A DNA stretch of 36,070 nt from a virus, in the UHGV virus genome UHGV-1528002; one strand, written 5' to 3'. The notes beneath the pieces were generated by a model. That model had not been told where the DNA came from. It made no database searches and was given only the letters and a program-made list of their open reading frames with translations. Below are positions 2,988 to 36,070 of this stretch, piece by piece; position 1 is the first letter of the stretch; the number at the start of each line of letters is the position of its first letter. The position numbers and the translations under genes are program-made.

Positions 2988-3869
2988 TTACATAGATGTT
3001 TCGTTTAATTCTTCCCGACGAACGCTGTAAACGTCGGTGGCTTTTGCCAGCAGTTCGTCATCATCTGAAAGTTTTTGTGCAATGTATTTGTAAGCCTTAT
3101 CCAGTTCGGAGACAGTGCTGTAATTCATCGCTGCGCTGGTAAAGGCCATCAGCATTTCTTCTGGATCACGGCTATCCGCTTTACGCGTTTGCTCATCAGG
3201 CTTTTTCACTGGTTTAGCGTTGATCAGACTGTTCATTCCCGCAGCAGTAGTTGTTTGCGGAGTAATGTCTCGCTCAACGCGCGGTGCCGTTTCCTGTAAT
3301 TCGTCAGGGGTGTAAACACCAAGAAGTACATCAGGAGCGTGCAGGCGAGCCCATCGTTTCGTGCAAAGATAGGCAAGTTGCTGGCGCGGATCCTGTTCCC
3401 ACAATGGAGAGTTACGCACTCCGGCTTGCGCCATACTGATGGTAAGCTCACGTGGTTCTACTTCTCCTTTAAGAACTGCTGACACAGTTACCGTCAGATT
3501 CGGTGATTTATCTGTTTTGCCGTTAACATTCGACCAGTCACCGCTCCAGCGATAATTAAGGCGTGTCGCTAGCAGGCTGGAAGAGGATACGACCGCGTTT
3601 ACCAACTGTGCTTCGTAGCCTAACGTTCCGTTTACCACATGCGTTTTCTGCGCCACGGCGAAAGGGTTCATTCCCCACTGTGCCGCCTGCATGGTCACCG
3701 CCAGGCAATCGGCAGGTTTGCCTTCAAGATGTTTCGGTACAGTCGCTTTGCTTTGTGACATCAACTCCGCGAAACGCACCAGTTGATTCATGCCCTCGGG
3801 GCTGAAGATTGCCGCAGCAGTGCCTACAGTTGCGCCTGGTTGTGATGTGATTGCGATATCATTGCTCAT
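2988..3869 (-). CDS. Single-strand annealing recombinase, Red-beta/RecT superfamily
   Basis: Segments resembling lambda Bet (LAYLCTKRWARLHAPDVLLGVYTPDE, PRVERDITP); 4-nt overlap with the upstream exonuclease gene. Confidence 0.8.
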   Translation of the reverse strand: MSNDIAITSQPGATVGTAAAIFSPEGMNQLVRFAELMSQSKATVPKHLEGKPADCLAVTMQAAQWGMNPFAVAQKTHVVNGTLGYEAQLVNAVVSSSSLLATRLNYRWSGDWSNVNGKTDKSPNLTVTVSAVLKGEVEPRELTISMAQAGVRNSPLWEQDPRQQLAYLCTKRWARLHAPDVLLGVYTPDELQETAPRVERDITPQTTTAAGMNSLINAKPVKKPDEQTRKADSRDPEEMLMAFTSAAMNYSTVSELDKAYKYIAQKLSDDDELLAKATDVYSVRREELNETSM

Positions 3870-4687
3870 ACGTACATATCCTGTTTACGTGCCCAGTCAG
3901 GGCGTTTAATAATTTCCACTCCGCCCCATTCATCGTTGATGCGGCATTCGTGATAGGTATTCAGATCCCGGCGGAACAGAGCGTGCCCGGCATCGACATC
4001 TGGCGCATCCAGCTCGAACACGCGTACCGGATACCGACCACAATCAATGCTTTCGCTCACGGCAAGAAAGAAAAAACCATGCGGCTGACCAGTAACCCTC
4101 ATTGCGCCTTCGCGGTACATTGCGTCCTGCACGTGGTAGCGGAATTCCTCGATGTGGCGTGCAAAACGGTCCATATCTGCAACCTTTTTCACGTCGACGA
4201 TCACGTTGTGCTCGTTCAGCCATTTGTCTGGACGAATTCGGCACAACTCACCCGTCTCTTCATCGTTCCAGTACATTGATGCTTCGCAGTAACCAGGTGC
4301 TTCCAACATCCAGCGTGCCGCCGGATGAGCCATTGCGCTATCACGCATCAGCTCCAGTTTTCGCCACTGCTCGACATCAAGTACCGTAATACCCATATCC
4401 GCCACATCACGAAGAAATGCTTCTTCGTCAGCTTTACCTTGTTTTGTCCGACGATCGAATTTCGGTGAAACGATGAAGCGTTTGTCGAATTCTCCAGGTT
4501 CCAGAAGCAGGCAGTGCAATGCGGTTCCCATATCCAGTGCAGACTTTTTCTCTTCGTCTTCTGGTGCTGCCTGAACCCATTTAAGAAGCGCCGGATTCTT
4601 GGCAACCATGTCCAGTTGCGACTTACTCACGCCGTCACCTGCGTGGTAGTCTTCGTTGCTGATGTCGAAATAAATTCCCGGTTTCAT
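3866..4687 (-). CDS. Recombination exonuclease, PD-(D/E)XK family (RecE C-terminal-like)
   Basis: N-terminus MKPGIYFDISNEDYHAGDGVSKSQLD typical of the RecE-C-terminal-like nuclease fold; paired with the annealase gene as a RecET/Red-like module. Confidence 0.7.
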   Translation of the reverse strand: MKPGIYFDISNEDYHAGDGVSKSQLDMVAKNPALLKWVQAAPEDEEKKSALDMGTALHCLLLEPGEFDKRFIVSPKFDRRTKQGKADEEAFLRDVADMGITVLDVEQWRKLELMRDSAMAHPAARWMLEAPGYCEASMYWNDEETGELCRIRPDKWLNEHNVIVDVKKVADMDRFARHIEEFRYHVQDAMYREGAMRVTGQPHGFFFLAVSESIDCGRYPVRVFELDAPDVDAGHALFRRDLNTYHECRINDEWGGVEIIKRPDWARKQDMYV

Positions 4688-5157: not shown

Positions 5158-5234
5158 TTACCGTTGAGGTAATAATTATGCGTATTTGGTTTGATGTCAA
5201 TAGATATGAGTTAAGAAAATTACCTATTAGGTAA
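5158..5234. promoter_or_regulatory. Left operator pair (OL-like): TTACCGTTGAGGTAA (5158-5172) and TTACCTATTAGGTAA (5220-5234)
   Basis: Two copies of the TTACCT-N3-AGGTAA palindrome flanking the leftward early promoter, immediately downstream of the repressor gene. Confidence 0.6.
5172..5200 (-). promoter_or_regulatory. Leftward early promoter (PL-like)
   Basis: Minus strand: TTGACA (plus 5195-5200), 17-bp spacer, AATTAT (plus 5172-5177); the last T of the -10 is the first base of operator 5158-5172. Confidence 0.5.
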
Positions 5235-5246
5235 CAGTATAGGCAA

Positions 5247-5272
5247 TAAAAAAGCCGCCAGAAGGCGGCTTA
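5247..5272 (-). terminator. Rho-independent terminator after the repressor gene
   Basis: Minus strand hairpin AAGCCGCC-ttct-GGCGGCTT followed by TTTTTTATT. Confidence 0.6.
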
Positions 5273-5291: not shown

Positions 5292-5876
5292 TTATTGTTT
5301 GTTTTTTTCGTTCTGGTTGATGACAAATTCAATGTAACTTTCGATCTTTGCTTTCTCGGTTTCGGGTAACAATGCGTAGCGCGAGCGGTCATAGTTGATG
5401 GTCGCAGGGTCGTGCGGGTGAATCAGTAATTCATAGCCGTGACGCCCGAATGCGGATGCAACATTCTCCAGGGTGGAAATGGAAACGCTGACCTCATTGT
5501 TTAACAGGCGGCTGATTGTCACCTGGGCGACGCCGGATGCGCGGTGAAGTTTTCCCTGAGTTGAAAGGTCGCGGCTTTCGCTCATCCAGCGTTCCAGGTT
5601 GTGAGCCGCCAGCTGACCAATGTCGCTTGGGCCGACAGGCTGAAAACCTTCCTGAGAAAGCGAGCGATCGATATCAAGCCAGTTACGTGGTTTATTGGCG
5701 GCAGCTTCAATTTTTCGCGCAACCTGGTCGCCGATAACCTTCTTGCCAAGAGCCCAGCGGTTTACCAGATTTGCCTGAGTTCCAAGTTTTTCTGCCATCC
5801 GCGTCTGAACACCATTGAATTCACGGTCGATCAAGTCGTTGAGATTTTGCCTGCGGACGTCCTGGATACTTTTCAT
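5292..5876 (-). CDS. Immunity repressor, tandem helix-turn-helix type, no recognisable autocleavage domain
   Basis: Two HTH-like segments (TRMAEKLGTQANLVNRWALGKK and HRASGVAQVTISRLLNNEVSVSISTLENVASAF); divergent from a Cro-like gene and flanked by palindromic operators; no Ala-Gly/Ser-Lys peptidase motif seen. Confidence 0.7.
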   Translation of the reverse strand: MKSIQDVRRQNLNDLIDREFNGVQTRMAEKLGTQANLVNRWALGKKVIGDQVARKIEAAANKPRNWLDIDRSLSQEGFQPVGPSDIGQLAAHNLERWMSESRDLSTQGKLHRASGVAQVTISRLLNNEVSVSISTLENVASAFGRHGYELLIHPHDPATINYDRSRYALLPETEKAKIESYIEFVINQNEKNKQ

Positions 5877-5931
5877 TTTCTGGAAAATCGCCTCATATAT
5901 GAATCAGTAGATGATTCAATTTAAAGCAATA

Positions 5932-5994
5932 TTACCCAACAGGTAAATGCACCTCATGGGTAACTATCCTTGATTTTTGTTACCTTATGGGTGA
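5932..5994. promoter_or_regulatory. Right operator region (OR-like): TTACCCAACAGGTAA (5932-5946) and degenerate TTACCTTATGGGTGA (5980-5994)
   Basis: Palindromes in the 154-bp divergent region between repressor and cro-like genes; TTGATT at 5970-5975 is a -35-like hexamer for the rightward promoter (-10 not cleanly assignable). Confidence 0.55.
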
Positions 5995-6030
5995 ATATTT
6001 ATTATCTGAAATAAATATCAGGCAATAGCT

Positions 6031-6261
6031 ATGAGCGATAACGGACATTTCGATTTCAAAAAGCACTGGCTTGCACTTACTCCGGATGAGCGTGAAGCCT
6101 TCGCACAGGAAGCCGGAACGACGAGTCACTATATCCAGACTCACTTAACAGGTAAGCGCAAAATGCCAGGTAATGTATTGATGGATGGGCTTTTTAAAGC
6201 CTGTAAATCAAGACAATGGCTGCGCTCAAAAGCAGAACTGGCATACTTCTTCTACTCATGA
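6031..6261 (+). CDS. Cro-like regulator, YdaS family
   Basis: 76 aa, divergent from the repressor; LTPDEREAFAQEAGTTSHYIQTHLTGKR resembles YdaS-type Cro-like HTH proteins. Confidence 0.6.
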   Translation: MSDNGHFDFKKHWLALTPDEREAFAQEAGTTSHYIQTHLTGKRKMPGNVLMDGLFKACKSRQWLRSKAELAYFFYS

Positions 6262-6283
6262 TATCCAGCCACAACCCTCTGTA

Positions 6284-6308
6284 GACCGCCATCCGGCGGT
6301 CTTTTCAT
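6284..6308 (+). terminator. Rho-independent terminator after the cro-like gene
   Basis: GACCGCC-atcc-GGCGGTC followed by TTTTCAT. Confidence 0.6.
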
Positions 6309-6316
6309 ATCTATTC

Positions 6317-6331
6317 GTACCTCAAAGGTAA
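6317..6331. promoter_or_regulatory. Operator-like palindrome GTACCTCAAAGGTAA
   Basis: One mismatch to the TTACCT-N3-AGGTAA consensus; lies between the cro terminator and the next gene. Confidence 0.4.
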
Positions 6332-6411
6332 TAAAAAACCAAATATGGTTGATCTTTTTTTTGTGTCAGCACAAAATAACCGTAATCCCAATACTAATAA
6401 CAGGGCTTACC

Positions 6412-8261: not shown

Positions 8262-8276
8262 ATTACCTATCAGGTA
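8262..8276. promoter_or_regulatory. Operator palindrome TTACCTATCAGGTAA
   Basis: Exact consensus copy 48 bp upstream of the operator at 8324. Confidence 0.5.
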
Positions 8277-8295
8277 ACAAAATATTCTAAACTCT

Positions 8296-8338
8296 ATTGA
8301 TTTCGTGTCTTATGTGGTTTTTAATTACCTAAGAGGTA
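8296..8338 (+). promoter_or_regulatory. Promoter with overlapping operator for the DUF1064 gene
   Basis: TTGATT (8296-8301), 17 bp, TTTAAT (8319-8324), then TTACCTAAGAGGTAA (8324-8338) starting at the last T of the -10. Confidence 0.55.
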
Positions 8339-8342
8339 AATC

Positions 8343-11894: not shown

Positions 11895-12107
11895 ATGCCA
11901 AAAATACGCTACGACCTTGAAGATATGAGAGATAACTCAGCAAATTTTCCGAAAGAGGTTAAATTTCTCATGCATAAGTATGGTTGCGCCAGGAGGGATA
12001 TAGTTATCGACAGTCAGCACCCTTGCGGCGAGGATGTAATTTTCATTCGCGGTAAATGGGAAGGGTATCTTGACGAGAGTTTTTACGATGAATTTGATGG
12101 ACTTTGA
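11895..12107 (+). CDS. Hypothetical small protein in an AT-rich moron
   Basis: 70-aa ORF from ATG 11895 in a low-GC segment, preceded by the palindrome and followed by a terminator. Confidence 0.35.
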   Translation: MPKIRYDLEDMRDNSANFPKEVKFLMHKYGCARRDIVIDSQHPCGEDVIFIRGKWEGYLDESFYDEFDGL

Positions 12108-12112
12108 ATACT

Positions 12113-12139
12113 GCCGCCAACTATGGCGGCTTTATTTTG
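12113..12139 (+). terminator. Rho-independent terminator just upstream of the terminase genes
   Basis: GCCGCC-aactat-GGCGGC followed by TTTATTTTG. Confidence 0.6.
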
Positions 12140-12181
12140 CATGGTACTATTACCACAACGGTAACTATTACCAAGGTGGTT

Positions 12182-12778
12182 ATGATGCCTGCTGAACCTA
12201 AAACCTATAAACGCAAATCAACGCAATTTAAGCCACTAACAGCAATGCAGGAGGCTTATTGCCAGTCATACATCAAAACGCCTGAAAACCAGACTCAGGC
12301 AGCGATTAACGCAGGATTCTCCCCAAATACAGCGGCAGTTAAAGCCAGTGTCATGATGCGCGATGAACGCATTCAAAAACGGATTGCCGAGTTGATGGAG
12401 GAGCGCAACAAACGAATGCGCGTCAGTGCTGATTACGTTCTCATGCGCCTGGTGGAGATCGACCAGATGGACGTGATCGACATCCTCAACGACGATGGGA
12501 GCCTTAAACCAATCCGTGAGTGGCCGAAAATCTGGCGCACTACGCTTAGTGGCTTTGATCTGTCATCGACCATCATGAACATGAACGAGGATTCGATAGA
12601 GACAATCCTCAAAAAAATTAAATGGCCTGACAAGGTGAAGAACCTTGAGCTGATTGGTAAGCATGTTGATGTCAACGCGTTCAAAGAACGTCTGGATGTT
12701 AATGTGAATGTGACAATTGCTGATCGCATAGCAGCAGCCAGGAAGCGACTCAAAGAACGTCAGGATGGTAATCAGTGA
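12182..12778 (+). CDS. Terminase small subunit
   Basis: ATG 12182 behind AAGGTGG RBS (the track's longer ORF spans the terminator); AYCQSYIKTPENQTQAAINAGFSPNTAAVKAS matches the small-terminase pattern; overlaps the large subunit gene. Confidence 0.75.
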   Translation: MMPAEPKTYKRKSTQFKPLTAMQEAYCQSYIKTPENQTQAAINAGFSPNTAAVKASVMMRDERIQKRIAELMEERNKRMRVSADYVLMRLVEIDQMDVIDILNDDGSLKPIREWPKIWRTTLSGFDLSSTIMNMNEDSIETILKKIKWPDKVKNLELIGKHVDVNAFKERLDVNVNVTIADRIAAARKRLKERQDGNQ

Positions 12779-14959: not shown

Positions 14960-15036
14960 TGGCGTGGCATGCAGGATTCGAACCTGCGACCAACCGCTTA
15001 GAAGGCGGTTGCTCTGTCCAACTGAGCTAATGCCAC
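14960..15036 (-). tRNA. tRNA-Arg, anticodon UCU, CCA encoded
   Basis: Minus strand folds as a cloverleaf: acceptor GTGGCAT/ATGCCAC, D-stem GCTC/GAGC, anticodon stem ACCGC/GCGGT with loop CTTCTAA, T-arm GCAGG-TTCGAATC-CTGC, discriminator G plus CCA. Confidence 0.85.
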
Positions 15037-15358: not shown

Positions 15359-15373
15359 TTACCTCAAAGGTAA
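15359..15373. promoter_or_regulatory. Operator palindrome TTACCTCAAAGGTAA
   Basis: Exact consensus copy in the 427-bp non-coding region between the tRNA and the gp6.7-like gene; minus-strand flank AATTAT-TACCT as at PL. Confidence 0.45.
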
Positions 15374-32833: not shown

Positions 32834-32876
32834 TTACCCTTGAGGTAATAGTACGCTATTCACCCCCAGTCTGCAA
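32834..32876 (-). promoter_or_regulatory. Promoter with overlapping operator for the 210-aa gene
   Basis: Minus strand TTGCAG (plus 32871-32876), 17 bp, TACTAT (plus 32848-32853), then TTACCTCAAGGGTAA (plus 32834-32848) starting at the last T of the -10. Confidence 0.55.
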
Positions 32877-32919: not shown

Positions 32920-33606
32920 TCAGAAGAACCCTGCCTTGTCGTTGATGTACTCCGCGTGGGTCTGGATATCACGCAGGCATTTACTCACACCGACGATGTA
33001 GCAGAACATGGTGGTCAGTTCCGCCGCCGCGCCCGATACGTCATGCCCGTCTTCCTGTAACTGGTTCAGCAAATTCATCAGCAGTGAGTTCTCCGTCAGG
33101 CCGAGAACACCAGACGGCGAATGAATCAGGCTGCGGTAGCCGGGCTTCAGCGGGGCACTGTAGGTTTTGTTCTCTATCTTCATCGCCTGCATCACTGCTG
33201 ATGCTGTGGCGTTTGCAACCTGGTCGGCAACCATCTTTATGCGTTCTTCCTGCGGGAGCGAGTTTTTAATGTAACTTCCGGTGCGGCGGATCTGAGGAAG
33301 AACCTCACCTGTAACCCATTTACGAAAGCGGTAGGGGATAGTGCCTGGTGTCACCGCATCGCGGCAGCGGAGGATCAGTGTGTAGAGGCCTGACTCGCTG
33401 ATAATATTGGTTTCGCCTTGACGACCTAAGTTAAATTTAGCCCTTTCATCATCATCAAGAGATTTGATTGACATGGTGGGGTTTGTCAGTTGAAGAGCTT
33501 TAATAACGTCTTTGGCAACAAACCAAGGATTTCCATCAATAACAATGGCTCGAATGGTTGCTTCTGATTCAAAATGAAAAACAGATGGGGTTACGTTAGC
33601 AGTCAT
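32920..33606 (-). CDS. Antirepressor, BRO-N domain with KilAC-like C-terminal domain
   Basis: N-terminal FHFESEATIRAIVIDGNPWFVAKDVIKALQL...IISESGLYTLILRC is the BRO-N pattern; ATG 33606 behind AAGGTGA RBS; C-terminal 75 aa are paralogous to the small gene at 34757-35014. Confidence 0.8.
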   Translation of the reverse strand: MTANVTPSVFHFESEATIRAIVIDGNPWFVAKDVIKALQLTNPTMSIKSLDDDERAKFNLGRQGETNIISESGLYTLILRCRDAVTPGTIPYRFRKWVTGEVLPQIRRTGSYIKNSLPQEERIKMVADQVANATASAVMQAMKIENKTYSAPLKPGYRSLIHSPSGVLGLTENSLLMNLLNQLQEDGHDVSGAAAELTTMFCYIVGVSKCLRDIQTHAEYINDKAGFF

Positions 33607-33762
33607 GGCAATCACCTTTTAGTATGGTTAATCACCACCTGAGGTGCAAATCTCGTTGGTGGTGAGACGTACAGGGTTTGCACTACCGGCTAAAAGGACC
33701 CGGCGCACCTTTCGGTGCCCCTGCACGTCCCACCATAATTCTGGCATGACTGTGCTATACGC

Positions 33763-33784
33763 ATAAAAAAACCACGTCTGGCGT
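33763..33784 (-). terminator. Terminator-like hairpin inside the antirepressor 5' leader
   Basis: Minus strand CCACG-ccaga-CGTGG followed by TTTTTTT, about 160 nt upstream of the antirepressor start. Confidence 0.45.
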
Positions 33785-33877
33785 GGTATGCGCCTTTTAG
33801 TAATCCGGGGTGCAAATCCCGGCACTGGATTTTGCCAGTGCTCAATTACTATGGCACAAGAGGAGTGCGATGTAAAT

Positions 33878-33921
33878 TTACCGCAAAGGTAATGATAAAC
33901 GCTGATAAATATAAAAATCAA
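33878..33921 (-). promoter_or_regulatory. Leftward promoter with overlapping operator driving the antirepressor leader
   Basis: Minus strand TTGATT (plus 33916-33921), 18 bp, TATCAT (plus 33892-33897), then TTACCTTTGCGGTAA (plus 33878-33892) starting at the last T of the -10. Confidence 0.5.
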
Positions 33922-33970
33922 CCGTATTTGGTTGATTGCGTTTAACGCTTGATCACCTGAAAGCAAGATA

Positions 33971-33985
33971 TTACCTTTAAGGTAA
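33971..33985. promoter_or_regulatory. Operator palindrome TTACCTTTAAGGTAA
   Basis: Exact consensus copy 21 bp upstream of the ATG of the membrane zinc-ribbon gene. Confidence 0.5.
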
Positions 33986-34756: not shown

Positions 34757-35014
34757 TTACCGGGTTTGTTTTCGTAATTGTTCGGCACAATAGTCGAGAT
34801 GTGTTTGCAGATCCTGCATAGACATCTGTGAGCTGGTGACGTAGTTAATCAGTGCAGTCAGTTCGGCAAGTGGGCCATCGACATTAAATCCATCCTTATC
34901 GAGATCCCGGAGTAATTTCATCAAGTGCGATCCCTCCACCAGTGATCTGACGCCTCCCGGCGTGTGAATCCTTTCGGTAAATCCGTCTTCCAGTGGATAG
35001 TGATACTGCTGCAT
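34757..35014 (-). CDS. Small KilAC-like protein (stand-alone antirepressor C-domain paralog), candidate SOS-induced antirepressor
   Basis: ATG 35014 behind GGAGAAG RBS (the track's longer ORF begins at TTG 35032); about 40% identity to the C-terminus of the BRO-N antirepressor (e.g. IHTPGGV / IHSPSGV, AELT, DLQTH / DIQTH); LexA box 22 bp upstream. Confidence 0.55.
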   Translation of the reverse strand: MQQYHYPLEDGFTERIHTPGGVRSLVEGSHLMKLLRDLDKDGFNVDGPLAELTALINYVTSSQMSMQDLQTHLDYCAEQLRKQTR

Positions 35015-35033
35015 CTTATCTTCTCCATGCAAT

Positions 35034-35053
35034 AACTGTATAAATATACAGTA
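35034..35053. promoter_or_regulatory. LexA (SOS) box
   Basis: AACTGTATAAATATACAGTA: CTGT-N8-ACAG with AT-rich spacer, 18 of 20 matches to TACTGTATATATATACAGTA. Confidence 0.75.
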
Positions 35054-35090: not shown

Positions 35091-35105
35091 TTACCTGAAA
35101 GGTAA
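35091..35105. promoter_or_regulatory. Operator palindrome TTACCTGAAAGGTAA
   Basis: Exact consensus copy in the divergent region between the small KilAC-like gene and the tail-fibre gene. Confidence 0.5.
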
Positions 35106-35209: not shown

Positions 35210-36070
35210 ATGACGGTCTCAACCGAAGTTGACCACAACGAATACACAGGTAACGGCGCTACGACATCATTTCCGTATACCTTCCGTATTTTCAAAAAAT
35301 CCGACCTGGTTGTTCAGGTGTCTGACCTGAACGGGAACGTAACAGAATTGGTTCTGGATACCGGTTATACGGTAACTGGGGCGGGCACTTATAGTGGCGG
35401 TTCTGTGGTTCTTCCGTCGCCGCTTGCTGCTGGCTGGCGAATTACGATAGATCGTGTGCTTGATGTGGTGCAGGAGACAGACCTTCGCAATCAGGGAAAG
35501 TTTTTCCCCGAAGTGCATGAGGATGCCTTTGACTATCTGACGATGCTGATCCAGCAATGTTTTGGGTGGTTCAGACGTGCATTGATGAAGCCCTCTCTGC
35601 TTGCAAAATATTACGATGCAAAGCAAAACAGAATTTCTAACCTTGCAGATCCATCACTTGAGCAGGATGCTGTAAATAATCGCTCAATGCGTAATTATGT
35701 CGATGCTGCAATCGCCGGGGTTGTTGGTGGTTTTGGTTGGTTTATTCAGTATGGTTCTGGAGCAGTATACCGAACGTTCCAGGATAAGATGAGAGATATC
35801 GTCAGTGTTAGCGATTTTGGTGCAAAGGGAGATGGAATAACTGATTCTACGGAGGCGTTCTCTAATGCAGGCCACAGAGCGTTTGTTCCTAATGGCGATT
35901 TTGCAGTAAATACTCTCGAAGTTGATGTATCTTCTGTTCAAGGTATTGGGAGGATTGTTGCTGATAATGGATCTCTTATTTCAGTTTCTCGTCTACTTGA
36001 AACTGACAAACTTGTGCAGAGAAAAATGATGGAACCTTTTTTTGGTTTTCAGGGAGAAACAAACACAGAA
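35210..36070 (+). CDS. Tail fibre/tailspike, N-terminal part (CDS continues beyond the window)
   Basis: Open frame from ATG 35210 (GGAG RBS) to the window end with no stop; N-terminus MTVSTEVDHNEYTGNGATTSFPYTFRIFKKSDLVV resembles the conserved tail-attachment domain of T7-like fibres; DFGAKGDGITDST suggests the start of a beta-helix enzymatic domain. Confidence 0.7.
   Translation, partial: MTVSTEVDHNEYTGNGATTSFPYTFRIFKKSDLVVQVSDLNGNVTELVLDTGYTVTGAGTYSGGSVVLPSPLAAGWRITIDRVLDVVQETDLRNQGKFFPEVHEDAFDYLTMLIQQCFGWFRRALMKPSLLAKYYDAKQNRISNLADPSLEQDAVNNRSMRNYVDAAIAGVVGGFGWFIQYGSGAVYRTFQDKMRDIVSVSDFGAKGDGITDSTEAFSNAGHRAFVPNGDFAVNTLEVDVSSVQGIGRIVADNGSLISVSRLLETDKLVQRKMMEPFFGFQGETNTE

Follow-up and report, generated by a model that had tools for sequence, protein, structure and literature searches.

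A probable Rep-Ant immunity switch of the SPC32H type in a phiV10-like phage, with a second helix-turn-helix fold predicted to serve in repressor dimerisation

The stretch of DNA analyzed here (the window) comprises 36,070 nucleotides of the virus genome UHGV-1528002 and is 98% identical at the DNA level to phiV10-type phages, which places it with the phiV10/epsilon15-type phages of E. coli. Two open reading frames diverge from a 154-bp spacer: rep, which encodes a 194-aa repressor orthologous to Rep of Salmonella phage SPC32H (positions 5292 to 5876, minus strand), and a gene for a 76-aa protein of predicted five-helix helix-turn-helix (HTH) type in the position of cro (6031 to 6261, plus strand). 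A terminator scan places predicted intrinsic terminators 3' of rep (5252 to 5271, minus strand) and 3' of the cro-like gene (6283 to 6302, plus strand), and both are annotated in phiV10. The promoters named here are presumptive assignments made from consensus matches only. They include a promoter-like PR for the cro-like gene (TTGTTA-17-TATTAT; 5977 to 6005, plus strand) and a leftward promoter-like site within the OL operator pair described below (TTGACA-17-AATTAT; 5200 to 5172, minus strand). The scan of the spacer returned no sigma-70-like leftward promoter for rep, for which a weak candidate (TTTAAA-17-TCATAT) can be picked out by eye.

The Rep protein is 100% identical to gp40 of phiV10, to ORF21 of vB_EcoP_ZX5 and to proteins in other phage records, and the flanking DNA of the phiV10 and ZX5 genes is approximately 98% identical to that of the window. 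The GenBank note on phiV10 gp40 already reads 'two helix-turn-helix motifs'. Moreover, overexpression of ZX5 ORF21 abolished free phage and caused a drop of more than 99.9% in transcripts of the lysis genes (PMC9782041).

The initial annotation had proposed that this repressor carries two HTH units, near residues 20-45 and 110-150, and that it has no peptidase domain, and both proposals are borne out. The Pfam family HTH_3 matches Rep in two stretches (E=1.2e-9), the better of which covers residues 106-147, and YdaS_toxin (PF15943) matches residues 21-61 with E=3e-4, which lies under the family cut-off. No peptidase family is matched at E<=1 in Pfam, and no S24 domain or self-cleavage module was found. 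The AlphaFold2 model (mean pLDDT 78.6) consists of two helical bundles joined by a disordered linker (residues 62-84), with HTH helices at 24-31/35-43 and 107-114/118-125. The residue ranges first proposed are therefore essentially right.

Residues 1-70 (5667 to 5876, minus strand) form an N-terminal HTH domain predicted to bind DNA on the basis of the PF15943 match, hhalign and AlphaFold2, with helices at 4-19, 24-31, 35-43 and 50-59 (pLDDT 85-91). This domain aligns to E. coli YdaS with an hhalign probability of 82%, is basic (net charge +4, pI 10) and has three invariant residues in helix 3 (N36, R40 and W41). Residues 89-152 (5421 to 5612, minus strand) form a second HTH-fold domain that corresponds by Pfam HTH_3, AlphaFold2 and Foldseek to the middle dimerization domain (MDD) of SPC32H Rep; its helices lie at 85-100, 107-114, 118-125, 133-142 and 147-151. 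It is near neutral (net charge about 0 to +1, pI 7), and its residues Q107 and R123, both canonical XRE features, are invariant among 27 relatives. The alignment to SPC32H Rep marks residues 153-194 (5295 to 5420, minus strand) as a predicted C-terminal tail for tetramerization and Ant binding (CAD, alias TetDloop), and the monomer model is poor at residues 152-163, which make an inter-subunit contact in the orthologue. The two HTH domains have no detectable similarity to one another (blastp E=1.4), which rules out a recent internal duplication as their source, and their helix-3 sequences differ (NLVNRW in the N-terminal domain versus QVTISRLL in the middle domain).

The closest solved relative covers nearly the whole of the protein. 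In a phmmer search of the PDB, Rep residues 1-190 align to residues 2-197 of 5D50_A (E=4e-42), and 5D4Z is matched with E=4e-20. The same two entries are the best Foldseek matches of the Rep model, which superimposes on 5d4z chains with TM scores of 0.67-0.76 across about 100 residues. Overall identity to SPC32H Rep is about 42-43% (41.8% by tblastn over 98% of the query) and amounts to 54% in the N-terminal domain, 34% in the middle domain and 47% in the tail. The last figure refers to an alignment to SPC32H Rep residues 159-196, and the tail also falls within the alignments to 5D4Z and 5D50. Thus, the two repressors are homologous over their full length even though they are only about 43% identical, and the middle domain is the part that diverges most from the SPC32H protein.

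The Rep-Ant switch of SPC32H and its PDB entries 5D4Z and 5D50 are reportedly the work of Kim and Ryu in 2013 (J Virol) and of Kim et al. in 2016 (PNAS). The window shares with SPC32H its genus, gene order, LexA box placement, TTACC-N5-GGTAA operator half-sites, OR geometry and operator pairs spaced by 62 bp. As summarized in two papers, the N-terminal domain of SPC32H Rep binds DNA, the middle domain is the MDD, and the C-terminal domain both tetramerizes and binds Ant (PMC9986798, PMC9638917). One of these sources also states that SPC32H Rep binds DNA as a tetramer in a trans arrangement and that Ant splits this tetramer (PMC9638917).

Many scattered operator copies had been noted at the outset, and this observation is upheld. 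The motif TTACC-N5-GGTAA occurs 15 times in the window with no more than one mismatch, compared with 0.60 expected, and none of 100 shuffled sequences reaches 15. All 15 sites sit between presumed genes or at gene starts. Three operators, spaced by 17 and 31 bp, occupy the spacer from which the two genes diverge. OR1 (TTACCCAACAGGTAA, 5932 to 5946) is perfect and adjoins the presumed rep promoter, OR2 (GCACCTCATGGGTAA, 5949 to 5963) has two mismatches and lies 17 bp from OR1, and OR3 (TTACCTTATGGGTGA, 5980 to 5994) has one mismatch and falls within the spacer of the rightward promoter. This geometry is kept in six loci, namely those of the window, SPC32H, epsilon15, BUCT711, Tyrion and the distant metagenomic locus L009. 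Operator centers in SPC32H are richer in A/T than those of the window (0.88 versus 0.75), and OR2 is degenerate here. A covariation test of operator half-sites against helix 3 of Rep or of the cro-like protein was uninformative, with TTACC/GGTAA present in all six loci compared; helix 3 of Rep keeps its N, R and W in these loci (NLVNRW, or NLISRW in L009), and the HTH of the cro-like protein hardly varies.

The remaining operators are distributed along the window. To the left of rep, the OL pair (5158 to 5172 and 5220 to 5234) is spaced by 62 bp and flanks the leftward promoter-like site; the spacing is kept in SPC32H and epsilon15, and the epsilon15 record annotates the OL sites as repressor binding sites. 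To the right, the operator GTACCTCAAAGGTAA (6317 to 6331) precedes the next promoter-like site that points rightward, and an equivalent lies 3' of the SPC32H cro-like gene. A second pair spaced by 62 bp (8263 to 8277 and 8325 to 8339) is found upstream of a DUF1064/resolvase-like gene, and a pair spaced by 18 bp (12150 to 12182) lies at the start of the ORF at 12104 to 12778, which by synteny we take to be the small terminase gene. In epsilon15, an annotated repressor site (12-27) lies just upstream of the small terminase gene. Single operators are located upstream of the integrase gene (136 to 150; identical site at SPC32H 26960), upstream of the structural-gene block (15359 to 15373; equivalents at SPC32H 3175 and epsilon15 2932), between a Bro-N antirepressor gene and the leftward gene that follows it (32834 to 32848), and in the spacer that separates ant from a rightward gene with its start at 35210 (35091 to 35105; kept at SPC32H 20013 and at epsilon15 19896, where it is annotated as a repressor site). 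Finally, two operators spaced by 93 bp (33878 to 33892 and 33971 to 33985) occupy a divergent control region upstream of a C4/isrK leader and the Bro-N antirepressor gene. Three phages (the window, SPC32H and epsilon15) have operators at the same positions and keep paired operators at constant intervals of 62 bp and 17-18 bp, and seven operators in the epsilon15 record carry the annotation 'protein_bind repressor'. The scattered operators are real; they are kept throughout the genus, and the epsilon15 record already lists them.

Another motif that recurs and resembles a palindrome (AACCAAATA.GGTTGA) adjoins operators at about 6339 and 33913. This motif overlaps -35 elements and hairpins, and its candidacy as the site of a second regulator was set aside.

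The antirepressor gene of the SPC32H system is also present. The small antirepressor gene ant (34757 to 35014, minus strand) encodes an 85-aa product when read from its ATG at 35014, whereas the mechanically called ORF begins upstream at a TTG at 35032. Its product matches 5D50_E with E=5.4e-47 and is close to 90% identical to it, as counted on the printed alignment. A perfect LexA box (CTGTATAAATATACAG, 35036 to 35051) precedes the start codon of ant by 22 bp, and SPC32H holds CTGTATAAACATACAG at the equivalent position. In contrast to the SPC32H record, in which none is annotated, the window also holds an extra Bro-N antirepressor gene behind the C4/isrK RNA leader.

The divergent gene had been described as a YdaS-like Cro, a label that suits its position but is weak as regards the YdaS family. 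The AlphaFold2 model of the 76-aa protein is confidently of a five-helix HTH type (pLDDT 85.5), and the protein is 77% identical to SPC32H_042. A sequence link to YdaS fails in Pfam, in NCBIfam, in hhalign with both profiles and in a profile search of the PDB. Specifically, Pfam searches including PF15943 gave no match at E<=1 for the protein and 23 close relatives, and none of 66 more distant relatives matched a Pfam family at E<=0.01. Comparison with E. coli YdaS by hhalign gave probabilities of 0.9% (E=0.064) and 0.5% (E=0.11) across two profiles, one narrow and one broad, and the profile search of the PDB recovered YdaS structures only weakly (8co2_A, E=0.18; 8c7k_A, E=0.62). The top Foldseek match of the model is indeed a YdaS (8co2_B; probability 0.90, TM 0.63), but its E value is 0.6, and the 434 repressor, SinR and C-proteins score nearly as well. 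Judged by sequence, the YdaS-like part of this switch is instead the N-terminal domain of Rep.

From its position, the 76-aa protein is presumed to be a Cro-like counter-regulator. Rather than working as a Cro on the Rep operators, it might be an early regulator of CII-like or other type, or act at a different site. Such a role would suit a protein that has no Pfam family and is called a hypothetical protein in every record examined, and whose gene is followed directly by a terminator and then by a separate, putative operator-controlled promoter. We consider this unlikely, though worth keeping in mind, as the gene diverges from the repressor gene in the classic way, downstream of a promoter-like site with OR3 in its spacer, and its product has a confidently predicted HTH fold. 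The protein also matches phrog_35 (E=3.5e-12), and the label of PHROG 35, transcriptional repressor family, likewise favors the Cro-like assignment. Furthermore, among five phages compared, four have exactly the HTH segment AGTTSHYIQTHLT and BUCT711 replaces its second T with V, and the operator half-sites are the same in all five. In the distant L009, the segment differs at three positions (AGTTVNYIRTHLV), and the gene stays paired there with a Rep-like gene.

The initial annotation had suggested that the second HTH of Rep could allow a repressor monomer to span the palindrome by placing one HTH on each half-site, and it is true that Pfam recognizes an HTH in each domain and that the model shows two HTH bundles with some 20 flexible residues between them. 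However, the half-sites of the palindrome are identical inverted repeats, and two domains as dissimilar as those of Rep, with unlike third helices, would not be expected to read two identical inverted half-sites. The near-neutral charge of the middle domain also counts against a two-headed monomer. In addition, the SPC32H orthologue, according to published accounts, is a tetramer that contacts DNA with its N-terminal domains and dimerizes through its second HTH-like domain (PMC9986798, PMC9638917). The proposal is left without support. Contact of one monomer with both half-sites is thus extremely improbable. Operator bridging, the other role envisaged for a two-HTH repressor, is plausible through a tetramer, given the conserved pairs at 62 bp and 17-18 bp, but not through that domain. 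The outcome that had been named as refuting the two-HTH proposal, a single HTH with a conventional dimerization or peptidase domain, is half matched by what was found, in that two HTH folds are present, but the second corresponds to a dimerization domain.

Another alternative is that the middle domain dimerizes and retains some DNA contact, either nonspecific or with a second motif, that helps the tetramer to hold or bridge the paired and scattered operators. The canonical XRE signature is kept in this domain (HTH_3, E=1.2e-9), and close relatives share its residues Q107, Q118 and R123; the retention of Q107 and R123 is what leaves some room for residual contact. The recurring AACCAAATA.GGTTGA motif near operators could be seen as a second target, but the overlapping -35 elements and hairpins explain it more simply. 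In addition, Q107 is replaced by E in SPC32H, epsilon15 and BUCT711, the net charge of the domain argues against residual contact, and in published summaries of the SPC32H work the N-terminal domain is the only one credited with DNA binding (PMC9986798, PMC9638917). Residual contact as an aid to operator binding is accordingly quite improbable, and a Rep tetramer that holds DNA through two kinds of head, with the second HTH contacting DNA besides dimerizing, is very improbable. If true, two kinds of head on the tetramer would account for operator pairs that flank promoters at a constant 62 bp.

The reading that we favor, with a probability of roughly 85%, is that the locus is a lysogeny/immunity switch of a Uetakevirus (the phiV10/epsilon15/SPC32H group) that works like the Rep-Ant system of SPC32H. 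This reading draws directly on the homology, the domain folds, the enrichment and conservation of operators, and the presence of ant behind a LexA box. For the oligomeric state, the roles of the domains and the way Ant acts, it relies on published work on the SPC32H orthologue. The N-terminal HTH (residues 1-70) would read the TTACC half-site, while the XRE-type HTH fold at residues 89-152 would be used as a dimerization module, with a dimer interface that is assumed from SPC32H because the middle domain is only 34% identical. The tail (153-194) would join two dimers into a tetramer and would also be the docking site for the antirepressor. Such a tetramer would display two pairs of N-terminal domains, each drawing its members from different dimers in the SPC32H model, and two pairs of domains would fit paired operators; from this we infer pairwise operator occupancy. 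The sites of Rep in this reading would be the three operators of the rep/cro-like spacer, with OR3 inside the spacer of the rightward promoter, the 62-bp pair that flanks the leftward promoter, and further sites in about nine other intergenic places. Rep would not cleave itself. Rather, DNA damage would cause LexA to leave the box before ant, and the Ant then made would bind the Rep tail, split the tetramer and release the DNA.

Several better known systems resemble this arrangement in part. Lambda CI, P22 C2 and other LexA-type repressors likewise have divergent repressor and cro-like genes with a three-operator OR, form higher-order oligomers and are induced in an SOS-linked manner. Unlike Rep, the Lambda CI-type proteins have an S24 peptidase, whereas the C-terminal half of Rep aligns to 5D4Z instead; induction here is predicted to proceed through a LexA-controlled antirepressor, and the oligomerization modules are unrelated. 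Phage P1 has a single repressor, C1, with many operators scattered over its genome, and an immI region with an antirepressor and the C4 RNA. The window is similar in its scattered operators, its antirepressor and a C4-family antisense RNA before an antirepressor gene, but P1 C1 has no sequence relationship to Rep and binds asymmetric operators, whereas those here are palindromic and the repressor is, by analogy, an XRE-type tetramer. The RacR/YdaS pair of the Rac prophage and YdaS of CP-933P (PDB 8CO2, 8C7K) also present a divergent repressor with a small HTH protein, although the likeness of the 76-aa protein to the PF15943 family is confined to the Foldseek match described above. Rco of the Bacillus plasmid pLS20 has an N-terminal HTH and a C-terminal strand-helix tetramerization tail likened to the p53 tetramerization domain, and is antagonized by an antirepressor (PMC9986798). 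This likeness is one of description, and Rco lacks the middle HTH-fold dimerization domain of Rep.

The two-HTH repressor is not new, having been anticipated by the GenBank note, the repressor test in ZX5, and the crystal structures and antirepressor mechanism of the orthologue. The presence of two HTH folds becomes ordinary because the second HTH of the solved relative is already described as holding the subunits together. More generally, a second Pfam HTH match in a phage repressor need not signify a second DNA-reading head, and in this phage, by analogy with SPC32H, the XRE fold appears to have been reused as a dimerization module.

The regulatory locus consists of rep (5292-5876, minus strand), which encodes the 194-aa repressor Rep, and a divergent cro-like gene (6031-6261, plus strand; 76 aa), separated by a 154-bp spacer. 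The genes on either side are those usual for the early region of a temperate phage, with a RecE-like exonuclease gene on the left and genes for a DnaT/HTH_36 replication initiator and a lambda-P-like protein on the right. In the window, RecT-like (2988-3869) and RecE-like exonuclease (3866-4687) sequences form separate, overlapping minus-strand ORFs, whereas a single 1761-bp RecE-RecT fusion gene is annotated at this place in phiV10. A tRNA-Arg gene (anticodon TCT; 14960-15036, minus strand) separates the terminase block from the structural genes, and Salmonella phage SPC32H carries tRNA-Arg at the equivalent place.

The initial annotation had proposed that Rep lacks a peptidase domain and has two helix-turn-helix (HTH) units instead. 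Pfam HTH_3 matches Rep (E=1.2e-9) along two stretches, of which residues 106-147 score best, and residues 21-61 match YdaS_toxin (PF15943) at E=3e-4, under the family cut-off; no peptidase family was found by Pfam, even at E<=1. An AlphaFold2 model (27 homologues as input; mean pLDDT 78.6) predicts two separate helical bundles, with HTH helices at residues 24-31/35-43 and 107-114/118-125, joined by a disordered linker (residues 62-84), and a long C-terminal helix (residues 172-193). Both the proposed architecture and the approximate HTH residue ranges are therefore borne out by Pfam and the model. The phiV10 record note already reads "two helix-turn-helix motifs (PF01381)", and Rep is 100% identical to phiV10 gp40, vB_EcoP_ZX5 ORF21, and the repressors of at least 10 other deposited phages. 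In ZX5, overexpression of the identical repressor left no free phage and lowered endolysin and holin transcripts by >99.9% (PMC9782041).

The Rep of SPC32H, for which crystal structures are solved, is a full-length homologue (5D50_A, E=4e-42, window Rep residues 1-190), and its residues 92-198 (5D4Z) match at E=4e-20; these same entries are the best structural matches of the Rep model. Identity is 54% in the N-terminal domain, 34% in the middle domain, and 47% in the C-terminal tail. One summary of the SPC32H work assigns DNA binding to the N-terminal domain of Rep, dimerisation to the middle domain (MDD), and both tetramerisation and binding of the antirepressor Ant to the C-terminal domain (CAD/TetDloop) (PMC9986798). 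According to another, the tetramer is the DNA-binding form and the dimer binds only weakly; each palindrome is proposed to be occupied by two DNA-binding domains contributed by separate dimers, and Ant, itself a tetramer, binds a pair of Rep dimers and breaks the Rep tetramer (PMC9638917). Judged by this homology and these domain roles, the second HTH of Rep most probably corresponds to the MDD of this known architecture.

The earlier suggestion that a monomer could span a palindrome with two HTH heads is not supported, because the operator half-sites are identical inverted repeats and the two domains are dissimilar, the middle one being near neutral (0 in the window, mean +1.4 in the aligned sequences). 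Blastp detects no similarity between the two HTH domains (E=1.4), and helix 3 reads NLVNRW in the first and QVTISRLL in the second. The N-terminal domain is basic (+4 in the window, +2 to +6 over 27 aligned sequences, among which N36, R40, and W41 are invariant) and resembles YdaS (hhalign 82%). That the middle domain, which retains an XRE signature and an invariant R123, still touches DNA is given a low probability. The two-HTH observation is confirmed, but the mechanism first attached to it is probably largely wrong.

The 76-aa protein, first described as a YdaS-type Cro, is indeed an HTH protein encoded in the divergent position, with a confident five-helix model (pLDDT 85.5), and only its position suggests a Cro role. 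PF15943 is matched by 0 of 24 close relatives at E<=1 and 0 of 66 broader family members at E<=0.01, hhalign against E. coli YdaS gives <1% probability, and the top Foldseek match, the CP-933P YdaS N-terminal domain (8co2; E=0.6, TM 0.63), barely exceeds 434 repressor or SinR. Family membership is therefore not supported, leaving a fold-level resemblance at most; the YdaS-resembling part of the switch is the N-terminal domain of Rep. The protein shares 77% identity with SPC32H_042. Of the five phages compared, four carry an identical HTH segment, and BUCT711 shows a single-residue difference. A Rep-like gene accompanies the 76-aa gene even in a distant metagenomic locus (L009), and the protein's family comprises at least 153 clusters in a 50%-identity representative library.

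Scattered operator copies, the remaining part of the earlier proposal, are real, conserved, and already annotated, as judged from their enrichment, their layout, and the epsilon15 RefSeq record, in which seven are labeled "protein_bind: repressor". The window holds 15 TTACC-N5-GGTAA sites at <=1 mismatch (0.6 expected by chance), all between ORFs taken as genes or at ORF starts. Between rep and the cro-like gene lie OR1 (5932, a perfect palindrome), OR2 (5949, 17 bp from OR1, two mismatches), and OR3 (5980, 31 bp past OR2, one mismatch), the last within the spacer of a rightward promoter-like site, TTGTTA-17-TATTAT. This geometry (17 bp plus 30-31 bp) recurs in SPC32H, epsilon15, BUCT711, Tyrion, and L009. 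Pairs exactly 62 bp apart, center to center, occur at two loci each in the window (5158/5220, flanking a strong leftward promoter-like site, TTGACA-17-AATTAT, and 8263/8325), SPC32H (33604/33666 and 35972/36034), and epsilon15 (32555/32617 and 35907/35969). Two further loci carry pairs at 17-18 bp, namely OR1/OR2 (window, SPC32H, epsilon15) and the small terminase (window, epsilon15). Paired operators would suit a tetramer that has two DNA-binding units, and the fixed spacing suggests one tetramer on both sites of a pair. A recurring motif, AACCAAATA(T/C)GGTTGAT, adjoins Rep operators at ~6339-6356, ~33913-33932, and ~5183-5196, overlapping -35-like hexamers and weak hairpins; SPC32H keeps the copy found after the cro-like terminator.

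Rep reportedly is not cleaved in the SOS response and is inactivated instead by LexA-controlled Ant, a finding attributed to Kim and Ryu (2013). The window ant gene (34757-35014, minus strand; E=5.4e-47 to SPC32H Ant) has a perfect LexA box, CTGTATAAATATACAG, 22 bp upstream (35036-35051) and a Rep operator at 35091, both at the same relative positions in SPC32H. The mechanically called ORF (34757-35032, minus strand; 91 aa) begins at a TTG at 35032; judging from the alignment with crystallised Ant and from a GGAG ribosome-binding site, translation instead starts at the ATG at 35014 (85 aa). The window also carries another, longer antirepressor gene (32920-33615, minus strand; 231 aa), which encodes a Bro-N domain (E=1.5e-19) and, at residues 150-226, a region homologous to SPC32H Ant (5D50_E, E=1e-13). 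Upstream of it, Rfam matches above the gathering score identify C4 antisense RNA (33655-33740, minus strand; 77.8 bits) and isrK (33765-33841, minus strand; 67.4 bits), and the whole resembles a P1 immI-type module for antisense control, present beside the LexA-controlled small Ant.

The system is already known, through the identical protein in phiV10 and ZX5 and through structure and mechanism in SPC32H; the DNA is ~98% identical to phiV10-type phages (genus Uetakevirus), and among 5426 complete E. coli genomes, 562 contain such DNA. The divergent control region that precedes the C4/isrK leader holds two Rep operators at a spacing of 93 bp (33878-33985). The one at 33878 is overlapped by a leftward promoter-like site (33921..33892), and the Bro-N antirepressor may itself be under Rep control. 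An operator-like site, TTACCTTAAAGGTAT (136-150), lies just upstream of the integrase gene; SPC32H has an identical site in the corresponding position (26960), and Rep may also control int.
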